Below are positions 257 to 15,290 of a stretch of DNA of 16,416 nt, in pieces. This DNA is from Promethearchaeota archaeon Loki_b32. Its GTDB lineage: Archaea > Asgardarchaeota > Lokiarchaeia > Sigyniarchaeales > SOKP01. A program made the position numbers and the translations under genes. Under the pieces are notes generated by a model that was not told where the DNA came from, did no database searches, and was given only the letters and a program-made list of their open reading frames with translations. Position 1 is the first letter of the stretch. Each line of letters opens with the position of its first letter. The stretch spans positions 1 through 16,416 of the forward strand of contig NJBH01000055.1 in NCBI GenBank assembly GCA_005223125.1. The letters are read 5' to 3'.

Positions 257-1636
257 ATGAGTTTTAGAACAGAAAAAGATGTTTTAGGAGAGATAGAAGT
301 TCCTAGTAATGTTTATTGGGGTATAAATACTCAAAGGGCAATAAAGAATTTTCAAATAAGTGGAAAGACATTCCCTCAAGTATTTATCACCGCATTAGCC
401 CAGCTTAAAAAGGCGTGTTTATTAGCTAATATGGGGTTGGACTTAATTAATAAAGATAACGGGAATGCTGTACTTCAAGCGATAAATGAAATTTTAAAGG
501 AAAACAAACATCTTGATCAATTCCCAATAGATATCTTTCAAACTGGATCAGGAACTCAAACAAATATGAATATGAATGAAGTGTTAGCGAATCGAGCAAA
601 TGAAATCTTAGGACATCCAAGAGGTAAAAAGTATCCTGTACACCCTAATGATCATGTAAATAAAAGCCAATCATCTAATGATGTGATTCCTAGCACAATG
701 CATATCTCTGCTTTACATATGATTCAAAAATTATTTCCGACATTAGAAAAGTTAATAGAACATCTGGATAATAAAATTAAAGATTTTAAAGACATTGTTA
801 AAGTAGGGAGGACACATCTGCAAGACGCCGTTCCTATACCATTATCTCTAGAATTTGAAGTATATAAGAAACAAATTAAAACAAACTTAGAAAGATTAAA
901 AAATGCTTATGATGAATTATATTATATTCCAATTGGGGGAACTGCATTAGGAACAGGTTTAAATGCGCATAAAGATTTTGCTAAACTTACAGTTTCTCAC
1001 CTCTCGAAAATTACTGACTTACCTTTTAAAGTTAATCCTGTGAAAGCAGAAGGCATTGCTTCCCATAATACAATAGTTAATCTTAGTGGAAATCTCAGGT
1101 TATTAGCCCTTTCATTATTGAAGATGGCTAATGATATACGTTTGATGGGGAGTGGACCACGAGCGGGATTATCTGAATTAATATTACCCCAAAATGAGCC
1201 TGGATCTTCAATAATGCCAGGTAAAATAAATCCCACCCAATCTGAAGCATTAATTCAAGTATGTCTTCAGGTTATTGGAAATGATTCTGTAGTTTCATTT
1301 GGAGAGGCATATGGTAGTATATTAGATTTGAATGTATGTAAACCTATTATGATAATTAATTTACTTGAATCAATTGAAATACTAATTGGAGGTATCAATT
1401 CATTTATAGACAATTGCTTGTCTGGATTAAAAGCTAACATTGAACAAATTAATAAAAATTTAGAGCGAATGCTAATGATTGTTACAAATTTAACTCCTAT
1501 CATAGGTTATGATAAATGTTCTGAAATAGCTCAACGCGCATATAAAGAAGGAAAGAGTTGTAGGGCAGTTATTAAAGATATGGGATTAAAAATAGATAAT
1601 TTGGATGAGTTATTAGACCCAAAAAAAATGGTTTGA
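257..1636 (+). CDS. fumC: Fumarate hydratase class II (fumarase/aspartase superfamily)
   Basis: 459 aa ORF with FQTGSGTQTNMNMNEV, HPNDHVNKSQSSND, KVGRTHLQDAVP and the GSSIMPGKINP signature. Confidence 0.95.
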   Translation: MSFRTEKDVLGEIEVPSNVYWGINTQRAIKNFQISGKTFPQVFITALAQLKKACLLANMGLDLINKDNGNAVLQAINEILKENKHLDQFPIDIFQTGSGTQTNMNMNEVLANRANEILGHPRGKKYPVHPNDHVNKSQSSNDVIPSTMHISALHMIQKLFPTLEKLIEHLDNKIKDFKDIVKVGRTHLQDAVPIPLSLEFEVYKKQIKTNLERLKNAYDELYYIPIGGTALGTGLNAHKDFAKLTVSHLSKITDLPFKVNPVKAEGIASHNTIVNLSGNLRLLALSLLKMANDIRLMGSGPRAGLSELILPQNEPGSSIMPGKINPTQSEALIQVCLQVIGNDSVVSFGEAYGSILDLNVCKPIMIINLLESIEILIGGINSFIDNCLSGLKANIEQINKNLERMLMIVTNLTPIIGYDKCSEIAQRAYKEGKSCRAVIKDMGLKIDNLDELLDPKKMV

Positions 1637-1652
1637 ATATTGAGGTAAAAAT

Positions 1653-2708
1653 ATGACAACAGAGGTAAAAACTTTAGAAGATGTACGCAATATTGCTAGA
1701 GAAAAACTAAAAGGAATATGTGGAGTCTACAAAGATTGTGATGGAGATCCACGTAGACTTTGCCAAGGACAAGGCTATGGAAGATCTCTTGGTATTGGAG
1801 GAATTGGAAGTGGTGCCAGTTTTAATAATAATTTCTTAGCCCTAAGAAAATATAATTTGAAAATGAAATTAATTAATAAAGATTTTACATCTGATACTAA
1901 ATATAATTTCTTTGGGAAAGAATTATCCATGCCAATAATGGCTGCGAGTGTGGCAGGTGTTAATAGCTTTGGTGGAGATAAGGTTATAACAGAAGAAGAA
2001 TTTTGTCGTTCTGTAGTTCTTGGCTGTAGAGATGCAGAAACAATTGGGTGGAGAGGGGATACTTATACTTATTCATTTGAAAATTCTTATGGACTTAATG
2101 CTATTGCTGAAGCGGGAGGTTGGGGAGTCAAAATTGTGAAACCAAGAGACCAAGGAACAATAATGAAATTTTTTAATAAAGCTGAAGAAGTTAGATGTGT
2201 TTCTGTTGGTATAGATGTAGATGGTTGTGGTTCATATGCAATGGCTATGCATAATAAACCAGTTTTCAAAAAATCAATTGAAGAAATTAAGGAATTAATT
2301 TCTTCTACAAATCTTCCAGTAATTATTAAAGGGATAATGTGCGTTGAAGATGCTTTAATAGCAAAAGAAGCAGGAGCAGCAGCTATCGTTGTATCAAATC
2401 ATGGGGGAAGAGTTTTAGATCATACTCCTGGAACAGCTGAAGTTTTATCTAGAATTGTAGAAGAAACTAAAGGAAAGATTAAAATTATCGTTGATGGAGG
2501 TATCCGGACGGGATATGATGTGTTAAAAATGCTTGCACTTGGGGCTGAATCAGTTCTGATTGGTCGAGACATTATTCGGGCTTCAGTCGGAGCAGGAATT
2601 AAAGGCGTCCAGATACATATGGAATATATGCAAAAGACTTTGGCAAAGGCAATGAAAATGACGAATTGTAAGTCTTTAGAAGAAGTAACTTCAGATATTT
2701 TAGTTTAA
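1653..2708 (+). CDS. FMN-dependent alpha-hydroxy-acid oxidase/dehydrogenase (lactate/glycolate oxidase family) with N-terminal Cys motif
   Basis: Catalytic SNHGGR motif, PVIIKGI and DGGIRTGYDVLKMLALGA FMN motifs. Starts 16 nt after the fumC stop, with SD-like GAGGT at 1642-1646, so probably co-transcribed. Confidence 0.9.
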   Translation: MTTEVKTLEDVRNIAREKLKGICGVYKDCDGDPRRLCQGQGYGRSLGIGGIGSGASFNNNFLALRKYNLKMKLINKDFTSDTKYNFFGKELSMPIMAASVAGVNSFGGDKVITEEEFCRSVVLGCRDAETIGWRGDTYTYSFENSYGLNAIAEAGGWGVKIVKPRDQGTIMKFFNKAEEVRCVSVGIDVDGCGSYAMAMHNKPVFKKSIEEIKELISSTNLPVIIKGIMCVEDALIAKEAGAAAIVVSNHGGRVLDHTPGTAEVLSRIVEETKGKIKIIVDGGIRTGYDVLKMLALGAESVLIGRDIIRASVGAGIKGVQIHMEYMQKTLAKAMKMTNCKSLEEVTSDILV

Positions 2709-2742
2709 ACAATAATTGTTTTATATGAAAAATATAATGTTT

Positions 2743-2811
2743 TCCCAGCACCCTTGCAAGGCAGTCATTATGTACCTATCCTTTATGCACATAAATCATT
2801 CTTTTCTGGGA
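2743..2811 (-). promoter_or_regulatory. Eukaryote-type SECIS element in the 3' UTR of the selenoprotein gene
   Basis: Minus-strand RNA reads UCCCAG-AAAAGA-AUGAU-UUAUGUGC-AUAAAGGAUAG-GUACAUAA-UGAC-UGCCUUGCAAGGGUG-CUGGGA. This gives helix I (UCCCAG/CUGGGA), an AUGAU/UGAC core with tandem G.A pairs, an 8-bp helix II and an apical loop containing AAA. It begins 6 nt after the TAG. Folded by eye. Confidence 0.85.
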
Positions 2812-2817
2812 TAAAGA

Positions 2818-3333
2818 CTATAAATATTTGTTTATTGCTTCAATTATCAATTCTATTGATGGTCTATCTTCTTTTGTACCAATATATTGCCAAACTACAT
2901 GTCCTCCTTTATTGATGAGAAACTTAGAAGGTATTGCATGGCTTATTTGCAATTCATCATGCCCAGCACTTTTTCTGTCCAAGAAGACATGATAAGCTTT
3001 ACTTAATCTTCCAGCACGATCAGTGATAAATTGTATTTTAAAATTATTCTTATATTTCATCTTTATTAACTTATCAGGGAGATCTATAGCAATTGCAATT
3101 AGTTTAATATTTAATTCTTTTAATTTTGATAAATTTTCAGTCAAGTATGCAAGATGTCTTTTACAGTGGATTCACCAACTTCCTCTGAAAAAATCAAGTA
3201 AAACTCCATTATATTTTTCTAATAATCTAATTAAATTAACCTTATCGCCATCAATATCTTCTGTGTCAATCATTGGAGCTTTAGTACCTAATTGTAAACC
3301 TTTATTCGGAGTTGAAATATGTAAGTCGGTCAT
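2818..3333 (-). CDS. Peroxiredoxin-like (AhpC/TSA, thioredoxin-fold) selenoprotein, 171 aa, Sec at codon 54 (TGA at 3172-3174) in a UxxC motif
   Basis: Manual translation from ATG 3333: MTDLHISTPNKGLQLGTKAPMIDTEDIDGDKVNLIRLLEKYNGVLLDFFRGSW-U-IHCKRHLAYLTENLSKLKELNIKLIAIAID...AIPSKFLINKGGHVVWQYIG. It runs in frame into the supplied 2818..3144 ORF, and the TGA sits at the first Cys position of the FxRGxWCxxC motif. Confidence 0.9.
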
Positions 3334-3481
3334 AAATGAATTATTAATTTTTAATAATTTAAAGAATTAGTTTTTAGATCATAATTTTTAATTCATTCTT
3401 AGGAATCATAAGTTTTATATTTTAATGGGATGTAATATCAAATTAATTAGTAATAAAGTCCTTTTATAAAGATGCTTAAAT

Positions 3482-5464
3482 ATGAAGGATATCTCTAAAT
3501 TTATTGATGATGTACTAAATGAAGTTAGTGGAAAATATGCCTTTGATTGGGTATCGAAGATATCGCAATATAATCGAGTTGTAGGGTCCCAAGATTATCA
3601 TGAAATTATAGAAAGAGTAATGAAAGAATTGGTATCTTATGGTTTAGATGAGATTAAACTCCATAAATACCCTGCAGATGGAAAGACTAAAACATGGGAA
3701 TGGATAGTAACTCAAAGTTGGGAGATTACATCAGGGGAATTAAGCTTAATAGAGCCAAAAAAAGAAATCTTATGTCGATTTCAGGATATTCCTATGTGTG
3801 TTTTAGGAAGATCAAAGGGTTGTGATTTGACCGCAGAGTTAATAGACGTTGGGAAAGGTGTTAAAGAAGAAGAATTTGAAGGATTAGATGTTGAAGGTAA
3901 AATTATTTTAATAGAAGCTCCAAGAATCATAGTTCCTACATTATATGCAGAAAAAGGAGCATTAGGAGTTATAGTATATCCCAGTTCAGTTCGAGCGGGA
4001 GGTAACAAAGGCATGACTATTTATAATAGGTTTCCTGCTATAGCTGAAGATTTAGAAAAAACAACTTTTGGTTTTAGTATTACTTTTGAGCAAGGATTGT
4101 ACTTAAAAGAATTGTTAAAAAAGGGACCTGTTAAGCTATATGCTAAGATTGACGCTAAAATTTATGATGGAGAATTAGAAGTAATTTCTGCCGCTATTCG
4201 AGGGACAGAAAAACCTCATGAAGAGATTATTCTAACAGCGCATATTTGTCACCCTGCTGCGGGAGTAAACGATAATGCTAGTGGATCCGCAGGATTGTTA
4301 GAATTAGCACGTTCACTTACAGCACTCATAAAGCAAAACATATTGCAACCCCCTAAACGGACAATAAGATTTCTTTGGGTTCCTGAGTTTCATGGAACAT
4401 TTCCTTGGGTTAAGGAACACGAACATATTGTTAAGAATGCACTTTTTAACATTAATTTAGATATGATAGGGGAACACCCCTTAAAAATTGGGAATCCCTG
4501 TTATATTTGTCTTGGACCTTATTCAAGACCTTCAATTTTAAATGATATAATTCAATATTTCACGAGGATAATAGCAGATCACCCTAAGGGTGTAGCAATA
4601 AATGGCACACAAATGCAGATGCGATATCGGATAGTTCCCTATTCAGGTGGGAGCGATCATGGTGTATTTGTAGCGCGACCTATAGGCATTCCTGGTATTA
4701 TGATTGGACATGAAGATCCCTTTTGGCATAGTTCCCTTGACACAATAGAAAAGTGTGATTCTACAGAATTAAAGCGTGTAATTGCTATTGCTCTTTGCAC
4801 TAGTTATATCTTTTCAATACAAAATAAGGATACTTTAATATCTATATGGCCAATTATAGAAGGAATTTTTTACCAGCGACTTGGTAAAGCAAAAGAAATG
4901 ATACTCTCTCTTTATAACAAACTCAATCAAGAAACTACAACATCTTTAATTTCAAAAGATGAAATTACTTTAATGGGAAAAACTCTAATAAATACATTTG
5001 TCAATTATGAAAAATCCATATTGGATTCAGTAAAACAACTTGATTCATTATCACCAATAATTGAAGAGTTATTTTTTGAAAAAGTTAAAGAATTAGAAGA
5101 ATTAAAGAAAAATCTTTTCTCTTACTGGAATAAATTATGTAAACATGCGTCTATTGACATTAATCTTATTGAAGAACCAGATCATTTTAAACAAAAATGG
5201 GTTTTAAATTTTGTAGGGAGAAGGAATTTGAAATATTTTATACCAATTCTACTCTCAAGTGTGTATGAGAAGTTCAAAGTTCCAGAACCACCAGATGTTT
5301 GGGGAGGTGATGCCCAAGAAATGATAAATTTTATAGGATTATCTTTAAGTCTTAAGGAGATCTGTGCTATATTAACTTTAGAGTTTCAACATTTATTTTA
5401 TCCAAGTATAGTTCTTAATTTTGCGAAATTATTAGAAGAAAATGGCTTTATGAAAAAAGCTTAA
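3482..5464 (+). CDS. M28-family metallopeptidase with PA domain (DUF4910-like) and helical C-terminal extension
   Basis: TAHICH, GVNDNASG, WVPE, INLDMIG, GGSDH and WHSSLDT motifs, plus a PA-like insert (DVGKG...DVEGKIILI...GALGVIVY). Confidence 0.8.
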   Translation: MKDISKFIDDVLNEVSGKYAFDWVSKISQYNRVVGSQDYHEIIERVMKELVSYGLDEIKLHKYPADGKTKTWEWIVTQSWEITSGELSLIEPKKEILCRFQDIPMCVLGRSKGCDLTAELIDVGKGVKEEEFEGLDVEGKIILIEAPRIIVPTLYAEKGALGVIVYPSSVRAGGNKGMTIYNRFPAIAEDLEKTTFGFSITFEQGLYLKELLKKGPVKLYAKIDAKIYDGELEVISAAIRGTEKPHEEIILTAHICHPAAGVNDNASGSAGLLELARSLTALIKQNILQPPKRTIRFLWVPEFHGTFPWVKEHEHIVKNALFNINLDMIGEHPLKIGNPCYICLGPYSRPSILNDIIQYFTRIIADHPKGVAINGTQMQMRYRIVPYSGGSDHGVFVARPIGIPGIMIGHEDPFWHSSLDTIEKCDSTELKRVIAIALCTSYIFSIQNKDTLISIWPIIEGIFYQRLGKAKEMILSLYNKLNQETTTSLISKDEITLMGKTLINTFVNYEKSILDSVKQLDSLSPIIEELFFEKVKELEELKKNLFSYWNKLCKHASIDINLIEEPDHFKQKWVLNFVGRRNLKYFIPILLSSVYEKFKVPEPPDVWGGDAQEMINFIGLSLSLKEICAILTLEFQHLFYPSIVLNFAKLLEENGFMKKA

Positions 5465-5583
5465 TAAAGCCATGTAATTAAGTCTTTATCTATCTTTTAT
5501 TAATGATTTAAAAGCCTAAGAGTTAAATATCAACTTCATTTACTTTTAGGTAAATTTAAGATTTCACAAATTTGGAATTGAAA

Positions 5584-6846
5584 ATGAATAGAGAAATTAA
5601 AAATTGTGAGACGCCAGATATTTTTGTATGTGAGGATTATATAGAAGAAGAACCTAAACTCTGCGAGCTTGATAATTCTAAAACTTATAAAGGATTAGTT
5701 GGAATATACGTTGATAAAAGCCTGATTACTTATATTGGTGGAATAAAAGGAGAATTATATTATCGGGGTTATCCTTTACACAATTTAGTTGAAAATTCAT
5801 CTTTTGAAGAAGTTGCGTATCTTCTAATTTATGGTAAGTTACCAACTAGATCAGAATTAGATTCTTTTAAAGATGAATTAATTAAGGAACGAAACATACC
5901 AGACAACATTTTATCAATTTTAAAGAGTTTTCCAAGAAATACAACAAGAATTGAATTATTAAGAACCTCAATATCAGCATTATCTCTTTATGATCCTGAC
6001 GATTATGACTTTTCTGAAGAAGCTAATATAAGAAAAGGATTAAGAATAATTGCTAAGATTCCAACGGTTTTAGCTTTTTCTCATAGGATTCAAGGTAATT
6101 TACCTTTAATTGAGCCTTCTGAAGAACTCTCTCATGCATGTAATTATTATTATATGATGACAGGAGAGGTACCTAATAATGAATTTACTCGATTTTTTGA
6201 TAAAATATTGATATGTCATATGGATCACTCAATAAATAGTAGTACTTTTTCTTGTCGGGTTACTGTATCTACATTGTCAGATATTTATAGTGGAATAACT
6301 AGTGCTATTGGAACACTTCGAGGACCTCTTCATGGAGGAGCTAATGAAAGAGTGATAAACTTAATGTTAGGTGAAATAAAGAAAAAAGAAAATATTATTC
6401 CATGGGCTAAAAATAAGCTTGAAAAAAAAGAGAAAATTATGGGTTTTGGACATCGCGTGTATAAAACATGGGACCCCCGTGCTAAAATATTACGAGAAAT
6501 ATCAAGAACATTATGGAATAATCCTGATATTATAGAAAAGATACCAGATATCGAACATGAAGAGCATAAAGGTGAAATTGATAATATATTCGAAATGACT
6601 GAAATACTTGCTGAATATATGATTAAAACTAAAAATATTTATCCAAACGTAGATCTGTATTCCGCTGGGGCTTTACATGCATTAGGTGTACCCACAGCTT
6701 TATTTACACCCCTGTTTGCTGCTTCGCGTTGTGCAGGCTGGGTTGCTCATGCTATAGAGCAATTTTCGGATAATAAACTTATAAGGCCACGACTCCGATA
6801 TATTGGTGAATTAGATAAAAACTATATCAAAATTGCTGAGAGATAA
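5584..6846 (+). CDS. Citrate synthase (archaeal/Gram-positive type); 2-methylcitrate synthase not excluded
   Basis: KGL, GELYYRGY, HMDHSINSSTF, GPLHGGANE, MGFGHRVYK, DPRA, YPNVD and IRPR motifs. ATG 5584 is preferred over TTG 5572, but the start is uncertain. Confidence 0.92.
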   Translation: MNREIKNCETPDIFVCEDYIEEEPKLCELDNSKTYKGLVGIYVDKSLITYIGGIKGELYYRGYPLHNLVENSSFEEVAYLLIYGKLPTRSELDSFKDELIKERNIPDNILSILKSFPRNTTRIELLRTSISALSLYDPDDYDFSEEANIRKGLRIIAKIPTVLAFSHRIQGNLPLIEPSEELSHACNYYYMMTGEVPNNEFTRFFDKILICHMDHSINSSTFSCRVTVSTLSDIYSGITSAIGTLRGPLHGGANERVINLMLGEIKKKENIIPWAKNKLEKKEKIMGFGHRVYKTWDPRAKILREISRTLWNNPDIIEKIPDIEHEEHKGEIDNIFEMTEILAEYMIKTKNIYPNVDLYSAGALHALGVPTALFTPLFAASRCAGWVAHAIEQFSDNKLIRPRLRYIGELDKNYIKIAER

Positions 6847-6849
6847 GTA

Positions 6850-9528
6850 GTGAAAAATATAGATGAGTTAGAAATTAAATCAAGAGTTAAAGAAACATTA
6901 GACTCGAAATTAGGAGAAATTTCAATTTTTAACATTCAAAAATTAAGAGATTTAGATTTAGGAGATCCAAATAAATTACCATATTCTCATAGAATTTTAC
7001 TTGAAAATCTTTTACGAAATTTAGACGGTAAACGCGTTAAAATAGATCATCTTCTTTCGATTTGTCAATGGGATTGTAAAAGTACAATTATGAGTGAAAT
7101 ACCATATATCCCCTCAAGAGTATTACTTCAAGATTTTACGGGAGTACCTTCTGTAGTAGATTTAGCAGCTTTAAGATCAGCTATGAAGAGAGCCGGTAGA
7201 GATCCATCCAAAATCAATCCCAAAATTCCAGTAGATTTAGTTATCGATCATTCTATACAAGTAGATTATTATGGAACTAAAGATGCTATTAAGTTAAACG
7301 AAAAAAAGGAAATGGAACGTAATCGAGAACGTTATACTCTCTTGAAATGGGCACAAGAAATATTTCAAAATTTTAGAGTGGTTCCTACTAGTCGAGGAAT
7401 TTGTCATCAAATAAATTTAGAATACCTAGCTTCAGTTGTTCACATTCAAGATATAAATGGTGAATTAATTGGATTTCCTGATACTTTAGTTGGAACTGAT
7501 TCTCATACCACGATGATAAATGGTTTAGCAGTATTAGGGTGGGGTGTAGGAGGCATTGAAGCTGAAGCAGTTATCTTAGGACAACCTTACTATATGAATA
7601 TTCCCAAAGTTGTAGGTGCAAAACTAATAGGGGAAGTCAAAGAAGGAATAACCGCAACTGATATAGTATTACATATTACACAAATTCTTAGAAAACATGG
7701 AGTTGTTGGTAAATTTGTAGAATTTTATGGTCCTAGTTTAAATAAGTTATGTCTTGCAGATAGAGCAACCATTGCAAACATGTCTCCTGAATATGGCGCT
7801 ACAATGGGATTTTTCCCTATTACTGATGAGACATTAAAGTATTTGAGAGATAGTGGAAGAAAAGAAGACCGTGTGGATTTTGTGGAACAATATGCTAAAA
7901 AAGTCGGACTTTTTTATAATGACAACGCCCCAACACCTGATTATAGTGAAAATATAGAAATAAATCTAAATGAGGTTGAAACTAACTTAGCTGGTCCAAA
8001 ACGACCTCAGGATCGAATTCCACTAAGTAAAATGAAGAATACTTTTACTGATCATATGAAATCTGTATTTAATAAAAATGATGAACTTGAAAAAATATCT
8101 GATGGAAAAAATTTAAGTCATGGTTCAATTGTAATTGCTGCTATTACATCCTGTACTAATACTTCAAATCCATCTGTAATGATTGGAGCTGGACTTTTAG
8201 CGAGGAATGCTGTTAAAAAAGGCCTAAAAGTCAAAAACTATGTTAAAACTAGTTTTGCGCCAGGATCTCGGGTTGTAATAGATTATATAAATGATGCTGG
8301 ATTGATGCCCTATTTAGAAGAATTAGGCTTTAATTTAGTAGGTTATGGTTGTACAACATGTATAGGAAATAGTGGTCCTTTAAATGAAGATTTTGTTCAA
8401 GAGATTGAAACTAAAGATTTAATTGCTGCAGCTGTCTTAAGTGGTAATCGAAATTTTGAAGGGCGAATAAGTCCCTATGTGAAGGCAAATTATTTAGCTT
8501 CTCCACCTTTAGTTGTCGCCTTTGCTTTAGCAGGTACCGTTGCAATTAATATGGAACAAGATCCATTAGGTTTTAGTCCAGATGGGTCTCCTGTTTATTT
8601 AAAAGAAATATGGCCAAGTTCTAAAGAAATTGCTGATTTAAGTGAGAAATATGTGTTACCAAAATTATTTCGTAAGGAATATGGAGAAATCTTCAAAGGT
8701 TGGGACTTGTGGAATGATCTCAAACCTCCAAAGAAGGAAATTTATCATTGGGAAGAAGACTCAACATATATTAGAGAACCACCTTTTTTTAAAGATTTTC
8801 GATTAGAGTTACCCCTTTTAGAAGATATAAGGGGGTCAAGAGTTTTAGCCTTATTAGGAGACTCGGTTACGACTGATCATATATCACCTGCAGGTGCAAT
8901 ACCAGAAGATATGCCTGCTGGGAAATATTTGATCTCAAAAGAAATAGAAGTGAATGATTTTAATTCTTTTGGTTCAAGACGAGGAAACCATGAAGTTATG
9001 ATGCGTGGAACATTTGGAAACATTAGAATAAGAAATAAATTAGTTAATAATGAAGGGGGATGGACTAGAAACTTTCTATCTGATGAAATTGTTCCTTTAT
9101 ATGATGCAGCTCAGGATTATATTTCAAATGAAGTTCTTTTAATTGCTCTGGCCGGTAAAGATTATGGTATGGGAAGTTCTCGAGACTGGGCTGCGAAAGG
9201 TACGCAACTTTTAGGCGTTAAAGCAGTCATTGCTGAATCTTTTGAACGTATTCATAGAAATAATTTAGTAGGCATGGGAGTATTACCATTACAATTCAAA
9301 AAAGGTGATACTCCAGAAACTTTAGGATTAGATGGAACTGAAACTTATAGTATTATGGGAATTAAAGACATAACTCCTTTCTCTGAGCTTAAAATTATTG
9401 CTAAAAGTAAAAATGGTAAAGAAATCATTTTTAATACAATAGCACGTCTAGATAGCAACGTTGATATAGAATATTATCAAAATGGTGGCATCTTGCATAC
9501 AGTTTTACGAAAAATGTTAGAAGAATAA
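6850..9528 (+). CDS. acnA: Aconitate hydratase A (AcnA/IRP1 family)
   Basis: 892 aa with LQDFTGVP, DLVIDHS, GTDSHT, the [4Fe-4S] Cys motifs AAITSCTNTSN and GYGCTTCIGNSG, TTDHISPAG and GSSRDWAAKG. GTG start lies 3 nt after the citrate synthase stop. Confidence 0.96.
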   Translation: MKNIDELEIKSRVKETLDSKLGEISIFNIQKLRDLDLGDPNKLPYSHRILLENLLRNLDGKRVKIDHLLSICQWDCKSTIMSEIPYIPSRVLLQDFTGVPSVVDLAALRSAMKRAGRDPSKINPKIPVDLVIDHSIQVDYYGTKDAIKLNEKKEMERNRERYTLLKWAQEIFQNFRVVPTSRGICHQINLEYLASVVHIQDINGELIGFPDTLVGTDSHTTMINGLAVLGWGVGGIEAEAVILGQPYYMNIPKVVGAKLIGEVKEGITATDIVLHITQILRKHGVVGKFVEFYGPSLNKLCLADRATIANMSPEYGATMGFFPITDETLKYLRDSGRKEDRVDFVEQYAKKVGLFYNDNAPTPDYSENIEINLNEVETNLAGPKRPQDRIPLSKMKNTFTDHMKSVFNKNDELEKISDGKNLSHGSIVIAAITSCTNTSNPSVMIGAGLLARNAVKKGLKVKNYVKTSFAPGSRVVIDYINDAGLMPYLEELGFNLVGYGCTTCIGNSGPLNEDFVQEIETKDLIAAAVLSGNRNFEGRISPYVKANYLASPPLVVAFALAGTVAINMEQDPLGFSPDGSPVYLKEIWPSSKEIADLSEKYVLPKLFRKEYGEIFKGWDLWNDLKPPKKEIYHWEEDSTYIREPPFFKDFRLELPLLEDIRGSRVLALLGDSVTTDHISPAGAIPEDMPAGKYLISKEIEVNDFNSFGSRRGNHEVMMRGTFGNIRIRNKLVNNEGGWTRNFLSDEIVPLYDAAQDYISNEVLLIALAGKDYGMGSSRDWAAKGTQLLGVKAVIAESFERIHRNNLVGMGVLPLQFKKGDTPETLGLDGTETYSIMGIKDITPFSELKIIAKSKNGKEIIFNTIARLDSNVDIEYYQNGGILHTVLRKMLEE

Positions 9529-9541
9529 AAACATAGAATTC

Positions 9542-9558
9542 TCTTATTTTTTATTTTT
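9542..9558 (+). terminator. Possible archaeal oligo-T terminator after acnA
   Basis: TCTTATTTTTTATTTTT shortly after the acnA stop. The AT-rich background lowers specificity. Confidence 0.35.
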
Positions 9559-9617
9559 AGGCTCTTCGATCTTTGCTAAAAATTGAATTTTCAGCTTATT
9601 TTCTCCTTTCTAATCGC

Positions 9618-9630
9618 AAACGTTTAAAAA
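9618..9630 (+). promoter_or_regulatory. Possible BRE/TATA promoter for the gelsolin-like gene pair
   Basis: AAACGTTTAAAAA about 45 nt upstream of ATG 9676, resembling an archaeal purine-rich BRE followed by a TTTAAA box. Confidence 0.35.
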
Positions 9631-9675
9631 CAAATTCTTTAACTATTTTGTTATAAGGTATAAAGATGAAGAAAA

Positions 9676-11298
9676 ATGGTTGAAAGTGTTATTAAAACCT
9701 TCAAGTTAAATTATGACGGAACTTTTGATGAGATAGCTTATGAAAACATTAAAGATGTTTTTACTATTGTTAATATCTTAGCTATCTATATCCAAAAAAT
9801 AAAAACAATGTATATTTGGATAGGACGAAATGCAACTCAAGCTTTAAAAAACCATGTAGCCCGAATTCGGGTAATATTGAAAGAAGAGTTCCCTCAGTTT
9901 AGAATTATTAGAAATATTACTTTTGATATGAGATCTGAGACATATGATTTCTTCAAGAACTTAAATATTACTAAAGAGGAATTATATGAAGTTATCAATT
10001 ATCAAGAAAAAACAGTACTTCCAGTGTTAGAGAAAATTGATGAATTAAAAGAGAAATCCGAAAAATCTATAGAATCTAAACAATATAAGAGCGCAATTGA
10101 ATTATTGAAGGAAATAATTGGATTAGCAGAAAAAATACAAGATGATGCTCTTGTAACAGAACAAAAAAGGTTAATATCAAAGTTAACTGAAAAATTTGAG
10201 AATCATCAGATTGTCTCTGAAATTGAACAGGAAACAGATAGAGTTGAAAAAGAATATATCGAGTTAATTAAAGCTAAAAGGATATTAAATGCTCATGAGT
10301 TTGTCGAAGCCTTCATAAAAAAATATGAAACGGTTTATGATCTATCACTAATACCAAGTGCTAAAGAATTAATATTAAAAGAAAAAAAGAAGTGGAACGC
10401 AGAACAAGAAAAAATAATAAACGATCTTTCAATATTGGAAAAAAATTTTAAATTATCTTTAGAAAACTTGGATATTTCAGAAGCAACTGAGATTTATGAA
10501 AAAGCAATGAATCTATTTTCTAATTTAATTGGAGAAAAAATTAAGAATAAATGGAAAGGATTTAGTAATAACATCCAAGAAGCAAAAAATAAATTGGAAT
10601 TTATAAAAAAATTCGATTCTTTTTCTGGAAAAATAAAAAATTTGAAGGAAACACATCAATACAACGAATTAAAATCAAAAATTGAGAATTTAATAAAACA
10701 AGTTGAACAATTAGATCTTCCGGAGTATCGTGGTAAATTAGATATGTTAAATAAAGAAGTCGATTCTGTTGAAGAGTCATATAATAGGATATTAGAAGAA
10801 ATAAGACATTTAGAAGAACAAATAATTGATAATCAAAAAAATAACCAATTTGAAAAAAATCTAAGAGACTGTAAGAAAATCGTCGAATTAGGTAAATCAA
10901 TAAATAAATCTGAATTAATCAAAAATTATACAACTATTTTGGAGCAAACTAAGGAGCAAATCAAAAACAGAAAAGAGTTTGAAGAAAAACAAATATTCTT
11001 GAAAGAAGAACTCACTAAATTAGAAAAAAGATTCACATCATCTATTAAAACCATGAAGATTAAAAATATCAACGAAATTCTTGAAAAAGGAGAGGAATTC
11101 CTTAATGAGCTAGTAGATGATGAAATTAAGGAGAAATGGGATAACTTTAAGGCCAAATCTCATTCTGCTAAGCAATTATTAGAAAAGGTAGAAATGTTAA
11201 GTAAAAATGGAATGGATGCTCTAAATAAAGGCTCTAGTCCGGATTCTCTAAATTTTTTTGAACAAATAATACATCAATTACAAGAATATAAAAGTTAG
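9676..11298 (+). CDS. Gelsolin-like domain protein with C-terminal alpha-helical repeat/coiled-coil region
   Basis: Residues ~1-98 have the gelsolin pattern (hydrophobic strand, MYIWIGRNAT, long helix, strand, SETYDFF). Residues ~115-540 are K/E-rich, with about seven helical units. Confidence 0.7.
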   Translation: MVESVIKTFKLNYDGTFDEIAYENIKDVFTIVNILAIYIQKIKTMYIWIGRNATQALKNHVARIRVILKEEFPQFRIIRNITFDMRSETYDFFKNLNITKEELYEVINYQEKTVLPVLEKIDELKEKSEKSIESKQYKSAIELLKEIIGLAEKIQDDALVTEQKRLISKLTEKFENHQIVSEIEQETDRVEKEYIELIKAKRILNAHEFVEAFIKKYETVYDLSLIPSAKELILKEKKKWNAEQEKIINDLSILEKNFKLSLENLDISEATEIYEKAMNLFSNLIGEKIKNKWKGFSNNIQEAKNKLEFIKKFDSFSGKIKNLKETHQYNELKSKIENLIKQVEQLDLPEYRGKLDMLNKEVDSVEESYNRILEEIRHLEEQIIDNQKNNQFEKNLRDCKKIVELGKSINKSELIKNYTTILEQTKEQIKNRKEFEEKQIFLKEELTKLEKRFTSSIKTMKIKNINEILEKGEEFLNELVDDEIKEKWDNFKAKSHSAKQLLEKVEMLSKNGMDALNKGSSPDSLNFFEQIIHQLQEYKS

Positions 11299-11316
11299 AT
11301 AATAGGAGTGAAAATA

Positions 11317-12315
11317 ATGACAGAAGAACAATCAGAAGAAACTGGGGTACAAAAAGAGAAAGAAGAAAAAAGAAAAATAAGAGTAGTTGAGCAAATTGAT
11401 GATCGTCTGGCTATTCAAGGTCAAGCATACATGAAAGGCCAATTAAAAGAAGCCGTATCTCTTGCTTATGAAATAATTGAATTAGCTAAACCTGAAGGAA
11501 TGAAATCGTTTATTAAAGAACAAGAGGAATTAATCGCCAGAATTAAGAAGATATTAAAAGAAAAGGAAGAAAGAGAAAGAGTAAGAATTAGAGTTGAACA
11601 AGAAAAATTAAGGCTTGAGAGAATTAAGAAATTAAAGATAGAGTTAAGTCAACTGGAAAGGGAGTTTAATATAGCTCTAAAGAAAGAAGACTTTCTGAAC
11701 ACTGAAGAAGTATTAGAAAATGCCAAGAATCTGCTCACTAAGCTTGATGATGAGAAATTAAAAACAAAATGGGAGGAACTTAAGAATCGAGCTGTAAAAA
11801 CGAAAATTAAAAAAGAATTAATAGTAAAAGCAGAGAAATTAATAGAAGAGAGTATCGATTTAAAAGAAAAATACCTCTTTGATGACCTAAAATTAAAATT
11901 AACAGATTTATTAGAACAGCTAAAAGATAATGAAATTGACGATTATTATAAAGAAATCAAAGCAATACAGTCAGATATTTTAAATGCTGAAAAAACCTAT
12001 TCAAAAACTGTAGAAAAAATTGAGGGATTAGTGAAGAAGGTTGGCAATTTTCAAGATGAGAAGAAATACAAAAATGCAATCTCAAATTGTGAAGAACTTA
12101 TTCAACATGCTGAATCAATAAAAAAAATTGATTTGGTTGAAGTTTATTCAAAACTTTTAATAAATCTCCAAGAAGACCTTAAATTTGAAGAACTTAAAGA
12201 TTCAGTACGGAAACTAAATGAGGAAAGTTTATTTTTATTGAGAAAAGGCGAAATTATTGCTTCCCTTGATAAATTCAAAATTATTCAAAAATCTTTGAAA
12301 CAATATAAAAAATAA
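11317..12315 (+). CDS. Alpha-helical repeat protein, paralog of the C-terminal region of the upstream gene
   Basis: Collinear similarity to the upstream protein (see findings). ATG 11317 is preferred over GTG 11308 because SD-like GGAGTG (11305-11310) lies 6 nt upstream. Confidence 0.75.
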   Translation: MTEEQSEETGVQKEKEEKRKIRVVEQIDDRLAIQGQAYMKGQLKEAVSLAYEIIELAKPEGMKSFIKEQEELIARIKKILKEKEERERVRIRVEQEKLRLERIKKLKIELSQLEREFNIALKKEDFLNTEEVLENAKNLLTKLDDEKLKTKWEELKNRAVKTKIKKELIVKAEKLIEESIDLKEKYLFDDLKLKLTDLLEQLKDNEIDDYYKEIKAIQSDILNAEKTYSKTVEKIEGLVKKVGNFQDEKKYKNAISNCEELIQHAESIKKIDLVEVYSKLLINLQEDLKFEELKDSVRKLNEESLFLLRKGEIIASLDKFKIIQKSLKQYKK

Positions 12316-12333
12316 TCCTAAATTTTCTTGAAA

Positions 12334-13116
12334 TTATACTAACTGTCCATAAATGACTTCTGTTTTATATTCAAATTTAATTAATCCATTTTGTTGATGC
12401 TTTTCATAAAGCTTCTTTAAATCAATCATCATATCATTAAAAGTTGGATGCCCCTCTAAGGGTATGTAGGAAGTAGAAAATAATCGACCCTTTAAATCAT
12501 TATAATCAAAGATTTGATAATTATCAAACTTCTTATACTTATATTTCCTATCTGTTTCACTTTCTCCAAAAAATTTATCAAAATCTAGCTTAATCTTTTC
12601 GATAGCTTTATAATCGGTTCCATACTTCAAGAGAAACTTTTCATATTCTTTTAAAAATTCATTATTCACCTTTTCTCGGCGATTCCAAATTAAAAGAACC
12701 CATCCTTCAGGTTTGAGAATTCTTAAAAACTCAATTCTCGTTTTTTCTAAATCAAACCAATGAAATGCTTGACCTGCCGTAATTATATCAACACTGCTCG
12801 AATTAATTAAACTATTTTCTGCTGAACCTTCAAGACTAACAAAATTTGAATATTTACTCAATTGAGTTTCTCCAGCATTTCTCATATCAATATTTGGTTC
12901 AATTCCATAGACATGATTACCTTCCTTTAAAAAAAGTTCGCTGAGGATACCTGTACCTGATCCGATATCAGCAATTACAGAATCACTTGATAAAATTTGT
13001 TTTTCTTTTAAGAATGAAATGATCTCCTGTGGATAACTAGGTCTATATTTAATGTAATTTTCTACTCTTGTAGAAAAACGTTTTTTTGGATCATGTTTAA
13101 ACTTTTTATCAAACAT
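12334..13116 (-). CDS. Class I SAM-dependent methyltransferase (Tmt1/Crg1-like motifs)
   Basis: ADIGSGTG motif I, GIEPN, DIITAGQAFHWFD, RILKPEG and N-terminal YIKYRPSYP. Confidence 0.88.
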   Translation of the reverse strand: MFDKKFKHDPKKRFSTRVENYIKYRPSYPQEIISFLKEKQILSSDSVIADIGSGTGILSELFLKEGNHVYGIEPNIDMRNAGETQLSKYSNFVSLEGSAENSLINSSSVDIITAGQAFHWFDLEKTRIEFLRILKPEGWVLLIWNRREKVNNEFLKEYEKFLLKYGTDYKAIEKIKLDFDKFFGESETDRKYKYKKFDNYQIFDYNDLKGRLFSTSYIPLEGHPTFNDMMIDLKKLYEKHQQNGLIKFEYKTEVIYGQLV

Positions 13117-13162
13117 TAAATTGATAAATATAAAAAAAGTAAAATAAATTTGTAATATTTCA

Positions 13163-15088
13163 TTAAGCGTGTTTTTGTTTAATAAGAGTTAACTTCCCGC
13201 CAGCCATTAATTCTTTTAAGCCTTGATCACTTAGAGAATGGGTCAGCTCGATATCTATATTTTTTGTTGTGTTTTTTAATGAAACTTTGCCAGTTTTAAT
13301 AGTAGTTAAATCAATCTCAAATTGATCTCCAGCATCAATTTTATTATAATCTTCTTTATTTACAAAGGTAAGAGGTACTATCCCAAAATTTAATAAATTA
13401 GCTAAATGAATACGTGCAAAACTTTTTACTATTACAGCTTTGATTCCGAGATATTTAGGTGCTATTGCGGCATGTTCACGACTTGACCCTTGTCCATAAT
13501 TCTCGCCTCCTACAATAAATCCCCCTCCCTTTTCAAGAGATCTATCATGAAAGGATTCATCAACTACATTGAAGACAAATTTGCTGATCTCAGGAATATT
13601 ACTCCTGAATGGCAATATTTTAGCTCCAGCGGGCAAAATGTGATCTGTTGTTATATCATCCTCAACTTTTAGAAGAGCTTCTCCTTCTAATTTATTAGGT
13701 AAAGGATTAAATTCTGGTAAAGGCTTAATATTTGGACCTCTGACAATTTCTATATTTTTAGCCTCTTCAGGGGGTAATGGTGGCACTATCAAGTTATCAT
13801 TGACATTAAACATTTTAGGCATTTCTAATTTGGGTAATTTACCATACTTTCTTGGATCTGTAATTTTTCCTTCAATAGCAGCTATAGCTGCGGTTTCAGG
13901 ACTCACCAAGTAAGCGTTAGCACTTTTAGTACCTGATCTTCCAAGGAAGTTTCTATTGAAAGTTCTTAAAGAAACAGCATCACTTTTAGGTGCTAACCCT
14001 TGACCTAAACAAGGTCCACAGGCATTTTCTAATATCCTTGCCCCAGCTTTTACTAAATAACCCATTTCACCGGATTCTATCATGTGATCTACTACTTGTC
14101 GAGAACCAGGAGATACAGTTAAAACCGTATTTAGGTTTACAGTTTTCCCTTTTAACATGTTTGCAGCTATTTTGAGATCTCTTAACGATGAATTAGTACA
14201 ACTCCCGATGCAAACTTGATCTACATTTAATCCTTCTAATTCTTTAACAGTTTTAACATTGCCAGGACTATGAGGTTCAGCTATCAATGGTTCTAATTCA
14301 CTTAAATTAATTTCGATCGTTTCATCATATTCAGCATCATCGTCAGGTTCTAATTGAATCCATTGATCTCCTCTTTCTTGAGCTTCTAAAAATTCTTTAG
14401 TAATCTCATCAGAAGGAAAGATTGATGTGGTTGCTCCAGTTTCAGTTCCCATATTTGTTATTGTTCCTCTTTCTGGAACAGTTAATGTTTTTATTCCTGG
14501 GCCAACATATTCTAAAACTTTATTGACTGCTCCCTTCACTCCTATTCTTCTTAAAACCTCTAATATTACATCTTTAGCAGATACAAAATCTGGAAGTTTT
14601 CCTGTAATATACACTTTAACAACTTTTGGCATTTTAAGACGGAATGATTCACCCGCCATTGCAGCTGCAACATCGAGACCTCCTGCTCCAATTGAAATTG
14701 ACCCTACACCTCCTCCAGTAGGAGTATGACTATCACTACCTAATAATGTTCTACCGGGGCGAGCAAACCTTTCAAGATGAACTTGATGACAAATACCATT
14801 TCCGGGTCGAGAGAAATATAAACCATATTTTGCTGCGATACTTTGAAGATAACGATGGTCATCGGGGTTCTTAAAGTCAGTTTGTAATGTGTTATGATCA
14901 ACATAGCTTACTGATAATTCAGTTTGAACTCGTGAAACTCCCATTGCTTCAAATTGCAAATAAGCCATGGTGCCTGTGGCGTCTTGTGTTAACGTCTGGT
15001 CTATTTTAATCGCAATATCAGTACCTTTTTCTATGTTTCCTTCAACTAAATGTTGTTCTATTATTTTTTCAGTTAAAGTTTTTCCCAT
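13163..15088 (-). CDS. Short (~640 aa) single-chain aconitate hydratase, putative 'Aquifex-type' aconitase family
   Basis: QDATGT, YVDHN, GICHQVH, GSDSHT, Cys ligands IGSCTNSS and ACGPCLG, TTDHI and GSSREHAA. ATG 15088 is preferred over TTG 15097. Confidence 0.92.
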   Translation of the reverse strand: MGKTLTEKIIEQHLVEGNIEKGTDIAIKIDQTLTQDATGTMAYLQFEAMGVSRVQTELSVSYVDHNTLQTDFKNPDDHRYLQSIAAKYGLYFSRPGNGICHQVHLERFARPGRTLLGSDSHTPTGGGVGSISIGAGGLDVAAAMAGESFRLKMPKVVKVYITGKLPDFVSAKDVILEVLRRIGVKGAVNKVLEYVGPGIKTLTVPERGTITNMGTETGATTSIFPSDEITKEFLEAQERGDQWIQLEPDDDAEYDETIEINLSELEPLIAEPHSPGNVKTVKELEGLNVDQVCIGSCTNSSLRDLKIAANMLKGKTVNLNTVLTVSPGSRQVVDHMIESGEMGYLVKAGARILENACGPCLGQGLAPKSDAVSLRTFNRNFLGRSGTKSANAYLVSPETAAIAAIEGKITDPRKYGKLPKLEMPKMFNVNDNLIVPPLPPEEAKNIEIVRGPNIKPLPEFNPLPNKLEGEALLKVEDDITTDHILPAGAKILPFRSNIPEISKFVFNVVDESFHDRSLEKGGGFIVGGENYGQGSSREHAAIAPKYLGIKAVIVKSFARIHLANLLNFGIVPLTFVNKEDYNKIDAGDQFEIDLTTIKTGKVSLKNTTKNIDIELTHSLSDQGLKELMAGGKLTLIKQKHA

Positions 15089-15290
15089 TTTTTTCAACTA
15101 TATTTTTAATTATAACATTTCTGGATAAAATAGATACTAAAGTAATTAAAATTGAAATCTTATTAAAATTTACTTTTAGAATCTTCCCATTTTTATCCCT
15201 ATTAACGGCTTTCTAATTAATTAGGTTTAACTATTTAAATTTTGAATGATTTTCCAAATTAAATTTCTTTTCTTTTAAGAGATAATTAAA

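Follow-up and report, generated by a model that had tools for sequence, protein, structure and literature searches.

What is encoded on the minus strand at positions 2818–3333 of the stretch of Lokiarchaeia DNA analysed here (the window, 16,416 nt), where the ORF caller returned only the 108-amino-acid, TTG-started C-terminal part of a gene, hereafter prxL? In the same frame, an ATG at 3333 is followed by 53 codons and a single TGA (3174–3172, codon 54), after which the frame is open to a TAG at 2820–2818, as the original prediction had proposed. The read-through product is 171 amino acids long and carries the sequence FRGSW-U-IHC. In the most probable reading, to which we assign a probability of about 0.9, prxL encodes an intact one-Sec U-x-x-C selenoprotein of the Lokiarchaeia PrxL family, with Sec insertion directed by a SECIS element, and the protein is likely a cytosolic redox-maintenance enzyme. 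Truncation by annotation pipelines had also been foreseen, and public calls of PrxL genes are indeed either fragments of 108–117 amino acids (including a 117-amino-acid NCBI protein) or full-length ‘WW’ misreadings produced with code 4. Gene calls at NCBI, JGI and ENA still cut PrxL genes short or give Trp for Sec, which hides the active site.

The complete protein matched the Pfam family AhpC-TSA (PF00578; residues 16–148, E 6e-19, above cut-off) as well as Redoxin. No NCBIfam cut-off was reached; the best match there was the disulfide oxidoreductase ResA (56.9 bits against a cut-off of 170), which was also the best sequence match in the PDB. The AlphaFold model (pLDDT 92.5) displayed a thioredoxin fold with a Prx-type N-terminal extension and insertion, in which U54 sits at the start of a helix (residues 55–66), and the nearest solved structures were BCP/PrxQ and AhpE peroxiredoxins (TM 0.77–0.81, with 0.81 to Sulfolobus Bcp4). 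Although the fold is common to both, true peroxiredoxins own a PxxxT/SxxC motif and a catalytic Arg that are absent from PrxL: in the alignment with Aeropyrum PrxQ, the counterparts of R50, U54 and P135 are Pro, Ser and Arg. The invariant Pro135 is matched in the ResA cis-Pro loop by Pro, and in the AKRAVF stretch of PrxQ by an Arg that we take to be the catalytic Arg of peroxiredoxins. Because Pro135 occupies this position, the sequence classes PrxL as Prx-like, with a thioredoxin-type CxxC box and Pro at the cis-Pro position, and not as a true peroxiredoxin, a point on which the original prediction is corrected. The CxxC box and cis-Pro position are common to PrxL and ResA. The ResA/TlpA families have an N-terminal membrane anchor or signal, whereas no hydrophobic N-terminal segment, signal peptide or membrane anchor was seen on inspection of the PrxL sequence, which also scores far below the ResA cut-off. 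U54 and C57 (codon 3165–3163) are the sole chalcogen residues, with no Cys outside the redox box.

Since the Prx signature is absent, P135 lies at the cis-Pro position and no chalcogen residue other than U54 and C57 is present, we infer a cycle in which selenol/thiol-disulfide exchange proceeds via a Se–S bond, and the most likely role of PrxL is that of a selenol/thiol-disulfide oxidoreductase in the cytosol. The Sec54 selenolate, positioned where the active-site helix starts, would attack a disulfide of the substrate or perhaps a peroxide; Cys57 would resolve the intermediate, giving a Se–S bond, and this bond would be re-reduced by a thioredoxin-reductase-like or other low-potential partner. 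Two TrxR-like genes were found in the host genome, just under the curated cut-off. The main rival to this reading leaves recoding untouched and differs in activity alone: the same selenoprotein might act mainly in peroxide reduction, in which H2O2 or organic hydroperoxides would oxidise Sec54 directly, with no need for the Prx triad, and Cys57 would again be the resolving residue. Selenolates react fast with peroxides, the AhpC-TSA match and the peroxiredoxin structures nearest to the model point the same way, and Arg50 and Arg157, both invariant in a 51-row family alignment, might replace the Prx Arg. Since true peroxiredoxins head the structural matches, the fold by itself does not discriminate between an oxidoreductase and a peroxidase. 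The replacement of all three signature residues (Arg50 for Pro, Sec54 for Thr/Ser and Pro135 for the catalytic Arg) and the preference of sequence searches for ResA nevertheless weigh against a peroxidase, which we consider the less probable main function. Mariotti et al. (2016; PMC4989117) described the PrxL family as never experimentally characterized.

The oxidoreductase proposed here most likely acts in redox maintenance in the cytosol and is expressed from a monocistronic gene, given that neither a signal peptide nor a membrane anchor is seen in the sequence and given the orientation of the neighbouring genes, a convergent FMN-dependent dehydrogenase on one side and a divergent M28 peptidase on the other. 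Orthologs retain the fumC/FMN-dehydrogenase/gltA neighbourhood, often without the M28 peptidase, and no functional link to PrxL was found among the gene neighbours in the window or around the orthologs.

That codon 54 specifies Sec is indicated by its conservation. This column was TGA in all 53 Asgard homologs extracted, at identities down to ~38%, and was invariant in the 51-row alignment, while column 57 was Cys in 43 of these homologs and TGA in the other 10. Of 161 genomes of the class that were searched, 91 gave PrxL matches, and each match covering the active site carries one to three TGA codons. Among distant homologs, retrieved by searching 1.8 billion representatives with a profile, column 54 was Cys in 148 of 160 aligned stretches and columns 54/57 formed CxxC in 145 of them; Cys or TGA at this residue was what the original prediction had led us to look for. 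Against eight orthologous sequences, which are free of indels and not all independent, pN/pS was 0.16–0.37 upstream of the TGA and 0.13–0.17 downstream. The upstream 53-codon part is therefore coding and under purifying selection, and this result together with the TGA shared by all 53 homologs argues that the TGA is not there by chance. If the TGA were instead a genuine stop or came from a sequencing error, prxL would be a pseudogene or would encode a protein of 108–117 amino acids starting past the TGA, which is all that the truncated public annotations show; such a fragment would be devoid of Sec54, with which the redox box begins, and neither the selection on an indel-free upstream part nor the covarying SECIS element 3′ of the gene fits this very improbable reading. 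An independent contig from a sediment run covers the region gap-free, with no sign of the sequencing error against which the prediction had cautioned. Both pseudogene and sequencing error were rejected on the conservation of the TGA in homologs from many genomes. The W at this position in full-length database homologs might suggest genetic code 4 or a similar code, in which TGA would mean Trp or some other residue throughout the organism. This reading has a negligible probability and is refuted by the stop-codon counts, since TGA closes 288 of 2076 long ORFs genome-wide and these contain 9426 TGG codons, so that the code is standard; moreover, fumC and the DUF6125 gene both terminate in TGA, column 54 holds Cys and not Trp in distant homologs, and the UCA-anticodon tRNA of the host has a tRNA-Sec fold. 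The initial claim of local recoding, with TGA an ordinary stop in those two genes, is thus borne out.

The host genome encodes three PrxL proteins: besides the one in the window there are two on contig C3, a UxxC and a UxxU form arranged in tandem, and the window protein is ~50% identical to them. In a quick tree (midpoint-rooted, no bootstrap, no outgroup) the window gene fell in a clade of its own with an SH-aLRT of 99, and members of this clade at ≥ 80% identity (i.e. at least 80%) were present in 8 of 54 genus genomes searched.

A SECIS element, not mentioned in the original prediction, lies directly behind prxL (2799–2764, minus strand) and was recognised by pattern, covariation, RNAalifold and a covariance model. 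Its AUGA (2799–2796) begins 18 nt 3′ of the prxL stop and is followed by an 8-bp helix (2794–2787 with 2775–2768) that closes an 11-nt, A-rich loop (2786–2776) containing AAA and ending in AG; after the helix comes GAC (2766–2764). These are the defining features of a lokiSECIS (AUGA, GA, a 9-position stem and an 11-nt A-rich loop ending in G). The lokiSECIS pattern had 17 matches in the host genome versus 3–6 in shuffled sequences; every one of the three PrxL genes is among these matches, along with three loci of the vhuD/hdrA type and a few small selenoprotein candidates. The pattern was also found 3′ of 50 of the 53 PrxL homologs. Across these 50 loci the upper helix was 94.5% paired, with compensatory changes at all eight pairs, and RNAalifold recovered it unprompted. 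A covariance model built from the PrxL elements gave one site in the window, itself a member of the training set, and seven sites in the genome, including vhuD and vhuU elements outside the training set. An Rfam scan of the prxL 3′ region matched no SECIS family. Single-sequence folding of the 3′ UTR yielded a z-score of −0.31, which is uninformative, and the SECIS call is therefore based on motif and covariation rather than on stability. The gene in the window displays the following Asgard PrxL features: an AhpC/TSA domain, a UxxC box with no other Cys, a lokiSECIS near the stop and a Sec-using host.

The position of the element relative to the coding sequence varies within the family. In the clade of the window gene the entire SECIS lies in the UTR, unlike in most C3-type paralogs (L007–L031), where the 5′ arm of the basal helix (see below) falls within the coding sequence and encodes a conserved C-terminal Asn-Pro; in some of these paralogs the AUGA core itself provides the stop codon. 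Behind a two-Sec homolog (L067, genome G113) AGGA replaces AUGA in an otherwise normal element, and two homologs of family f2 (L028 and L030) showed no pattern match within 300 nt. One prxL ortholog (L006:1501–2013, genome G013) is truncated by a frameshift near codon 140, with its SECIS intact.

Machinery for Sec synthesis and insertion, a check suggested with the original prediction, was detected in the host genome. SepSecS scored over its cut-off, EFSec at its cut-off and a PSTK-like kinase under its curated cut-off (E 6e-40), and two SelD genes in tandem contain one TGA each. A tRNA-Sec gene lies beside sepSecS (contig C57, 28655–28506, minus strand; L037), its D loop interrupted by an intron of ~30 nt and its T loop by one of ~31 nt. 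Once spliced in silico, it has a 9-bp acceptor stem, a 7-bp D stem, a UCA anticodon, a long variable arm and a 4-bp T stem. Searches with Rfam RF01852 and ARAGORN missed this gene because it is interrupted by two introns (relaxed ARAGORN output was noise); a BLAST search that used intron-less tRNA-Sec sequences from relatives recovered it. A tRNA-Sec match over the Rfam cut-off was present in 19 of 30 genus relatives, and neither intron occurred in the eight genus relatives inspected; a T-loop intron is the only tRNA-Sec intron reported by Mariotti et al. (2016; PMC4989117). Huang et al. (2024; PMC11227280) count as Sec-utilising those Asgard archaea that have at least three machinery genes and a selenoprotein, and the host, with SepSecS, EFSec, the PSTK-like kinase, two SelD and tRNA-Sec, is one of them; among named relatives, the closest to the host are Promethearchaeota. 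In the proposed mechanism, Sec-tRNA would be made by the action of SerRS, PSTK, SelD and SepSecS, and the SECIS would direct EFSec and Sec-tRNA-Sec to UGA 54, yielding the 171-amino-acid protein.

The PrxL protein of the window, its family and its SECIS type are already known, and the gene itself is not novel, since the literature already lists an identical 171-amino-acid sequence, with X at position 54, among Prx-like selenoproteins (entry Lokiarchaeia_GCA_005223125_U_3 in Supplementary data 2 of PMC11227280, Supplementary file 79; compared by eye, with no sequence difference). Entry U_2 of the same assembly in that supplement matches the UxxU paralog on contig C3, and the N-terminal HISTPNKG motif of the window clade occurs in eight of its entries; the main text of the paper contains no separate discussion of the window paralog. 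Huang, Xiao and Zhang (2024; PMC11227280) reported that 43% of the Asgard archaea that use Sec have Prx-like selenoproteins, accompanied in most cases by type I elements, and PrxL containing either a single Sec or two, together with a lokiSECIS, had been described in Lokiarchaeota by Mariotti et al. (2016; PMC4989117). As in the window gene, the PrxL.2 (one Sec) and PrxL.1 (two Sec) proteins of the latter study have a U-x-x-C box, no outside Cys and a lokiSECIS near the stop; in the quick tree the window gene belongs to a clade separate from that of the contig C3 pair. The lokiSECIS of Mariotti et al. (2016) corresponds to what Huang et al. (2024) call the Asgard type I eSECIS-like element, and the element in the window matches both in its AUGA, its stem of nine positions, its A-rich 11-nt loop with AG at the end, and its GA; it differs from the published lokiSECIS in the second base of the loop, which is U (AUAAA), and from its published text description in the arrangement of two further helices.

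These helices turn the element into a three-way junction. A side hairpin of 4–5 bp with a U-GCAA loop (2763–2749, minus strand) lies between the 3′ half of the core and a basal helix (2811–2806 paired with 2748–2743, minus strand) that closes the junction. The side hairpin was present in the single-sequence fold and was found behind nearly all sampled PrxL genes as well as several other selenoprotein genes of the host genome. It was 87% paired, with compensatory changes at only two of five pairs, and the basal helix was 74% paired in an alignment that is imperfectly registered. RNAalifold predicted the upper helix and neither of these two, which therefore rely on the named-structure count, the shuffle control of which ignores the relatedness of the sequences; both are less well supported than the upper helix. 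The side hairpin and three-way junction are the sole feature that we did not find in published text on Asgard SECIS elements: the text, figures aside, of PMC4989117 and PMC11227280 does not contain them, and a literature search for SECIS and three-way junction returned nothing on Asgard. We tentatively propose, at a little under even odds, that the Asgard SECIS, rather than being a two-helix K-turn hairpin, forms a conserved three-way RNA (k-junction-like) whose side hairpin, with its G-Y-R loop, is needed for Sec insertion. The side hairpin could be a docking site for EFSec or for a factor replacing SBP2, and it offers a concrete mutational target for how a eukaryote-like SECIS works without SBP2.

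Other loci of the host genome also combine in-frame TGA codons with SECIS elements. On contig C24 (~227218 and ~226519, minus strand) two tandem paralogs, each with a lokiSECIS behind it, read through adjacent TGA codons in D-U-U-A-D and G-C-U-U-E-K motifs and apparently fall outside the seven selenoprotein families of Huang et al. (2024). An 81-amino-acid ORF on contig C70 (~14430–14750, plus strand; L085), with a hydrophobic N-terminal stretch, a GG-U-AC motif and a three-way SECIS (45.8 bits), is a candidate small membrane selenoprotein. Another candidate small selenoprotein is encoded on contig C11 (~35370–35730, plus strand; L083) by a small ORF with a hydrophobic stretch, an acidic linker and a C-F-U motif, after which come 41 sense codons and a SECIS of 48.6 bits. 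Within the window, positions 257–15097 contain a metabolic cluster with fumC, the FMN-dependent dehydrogenase, the M28 peptidase, a citrate synthase-like gene and two different aconitase-like genes, one per strand, the last three being judged by sequence only. Two adjacent long, Lys/Glu-rich ORFs (540 and 335 amino acids; 9676–12315, plus strand) probably encode helical-repeat or coiled-coil proteins.
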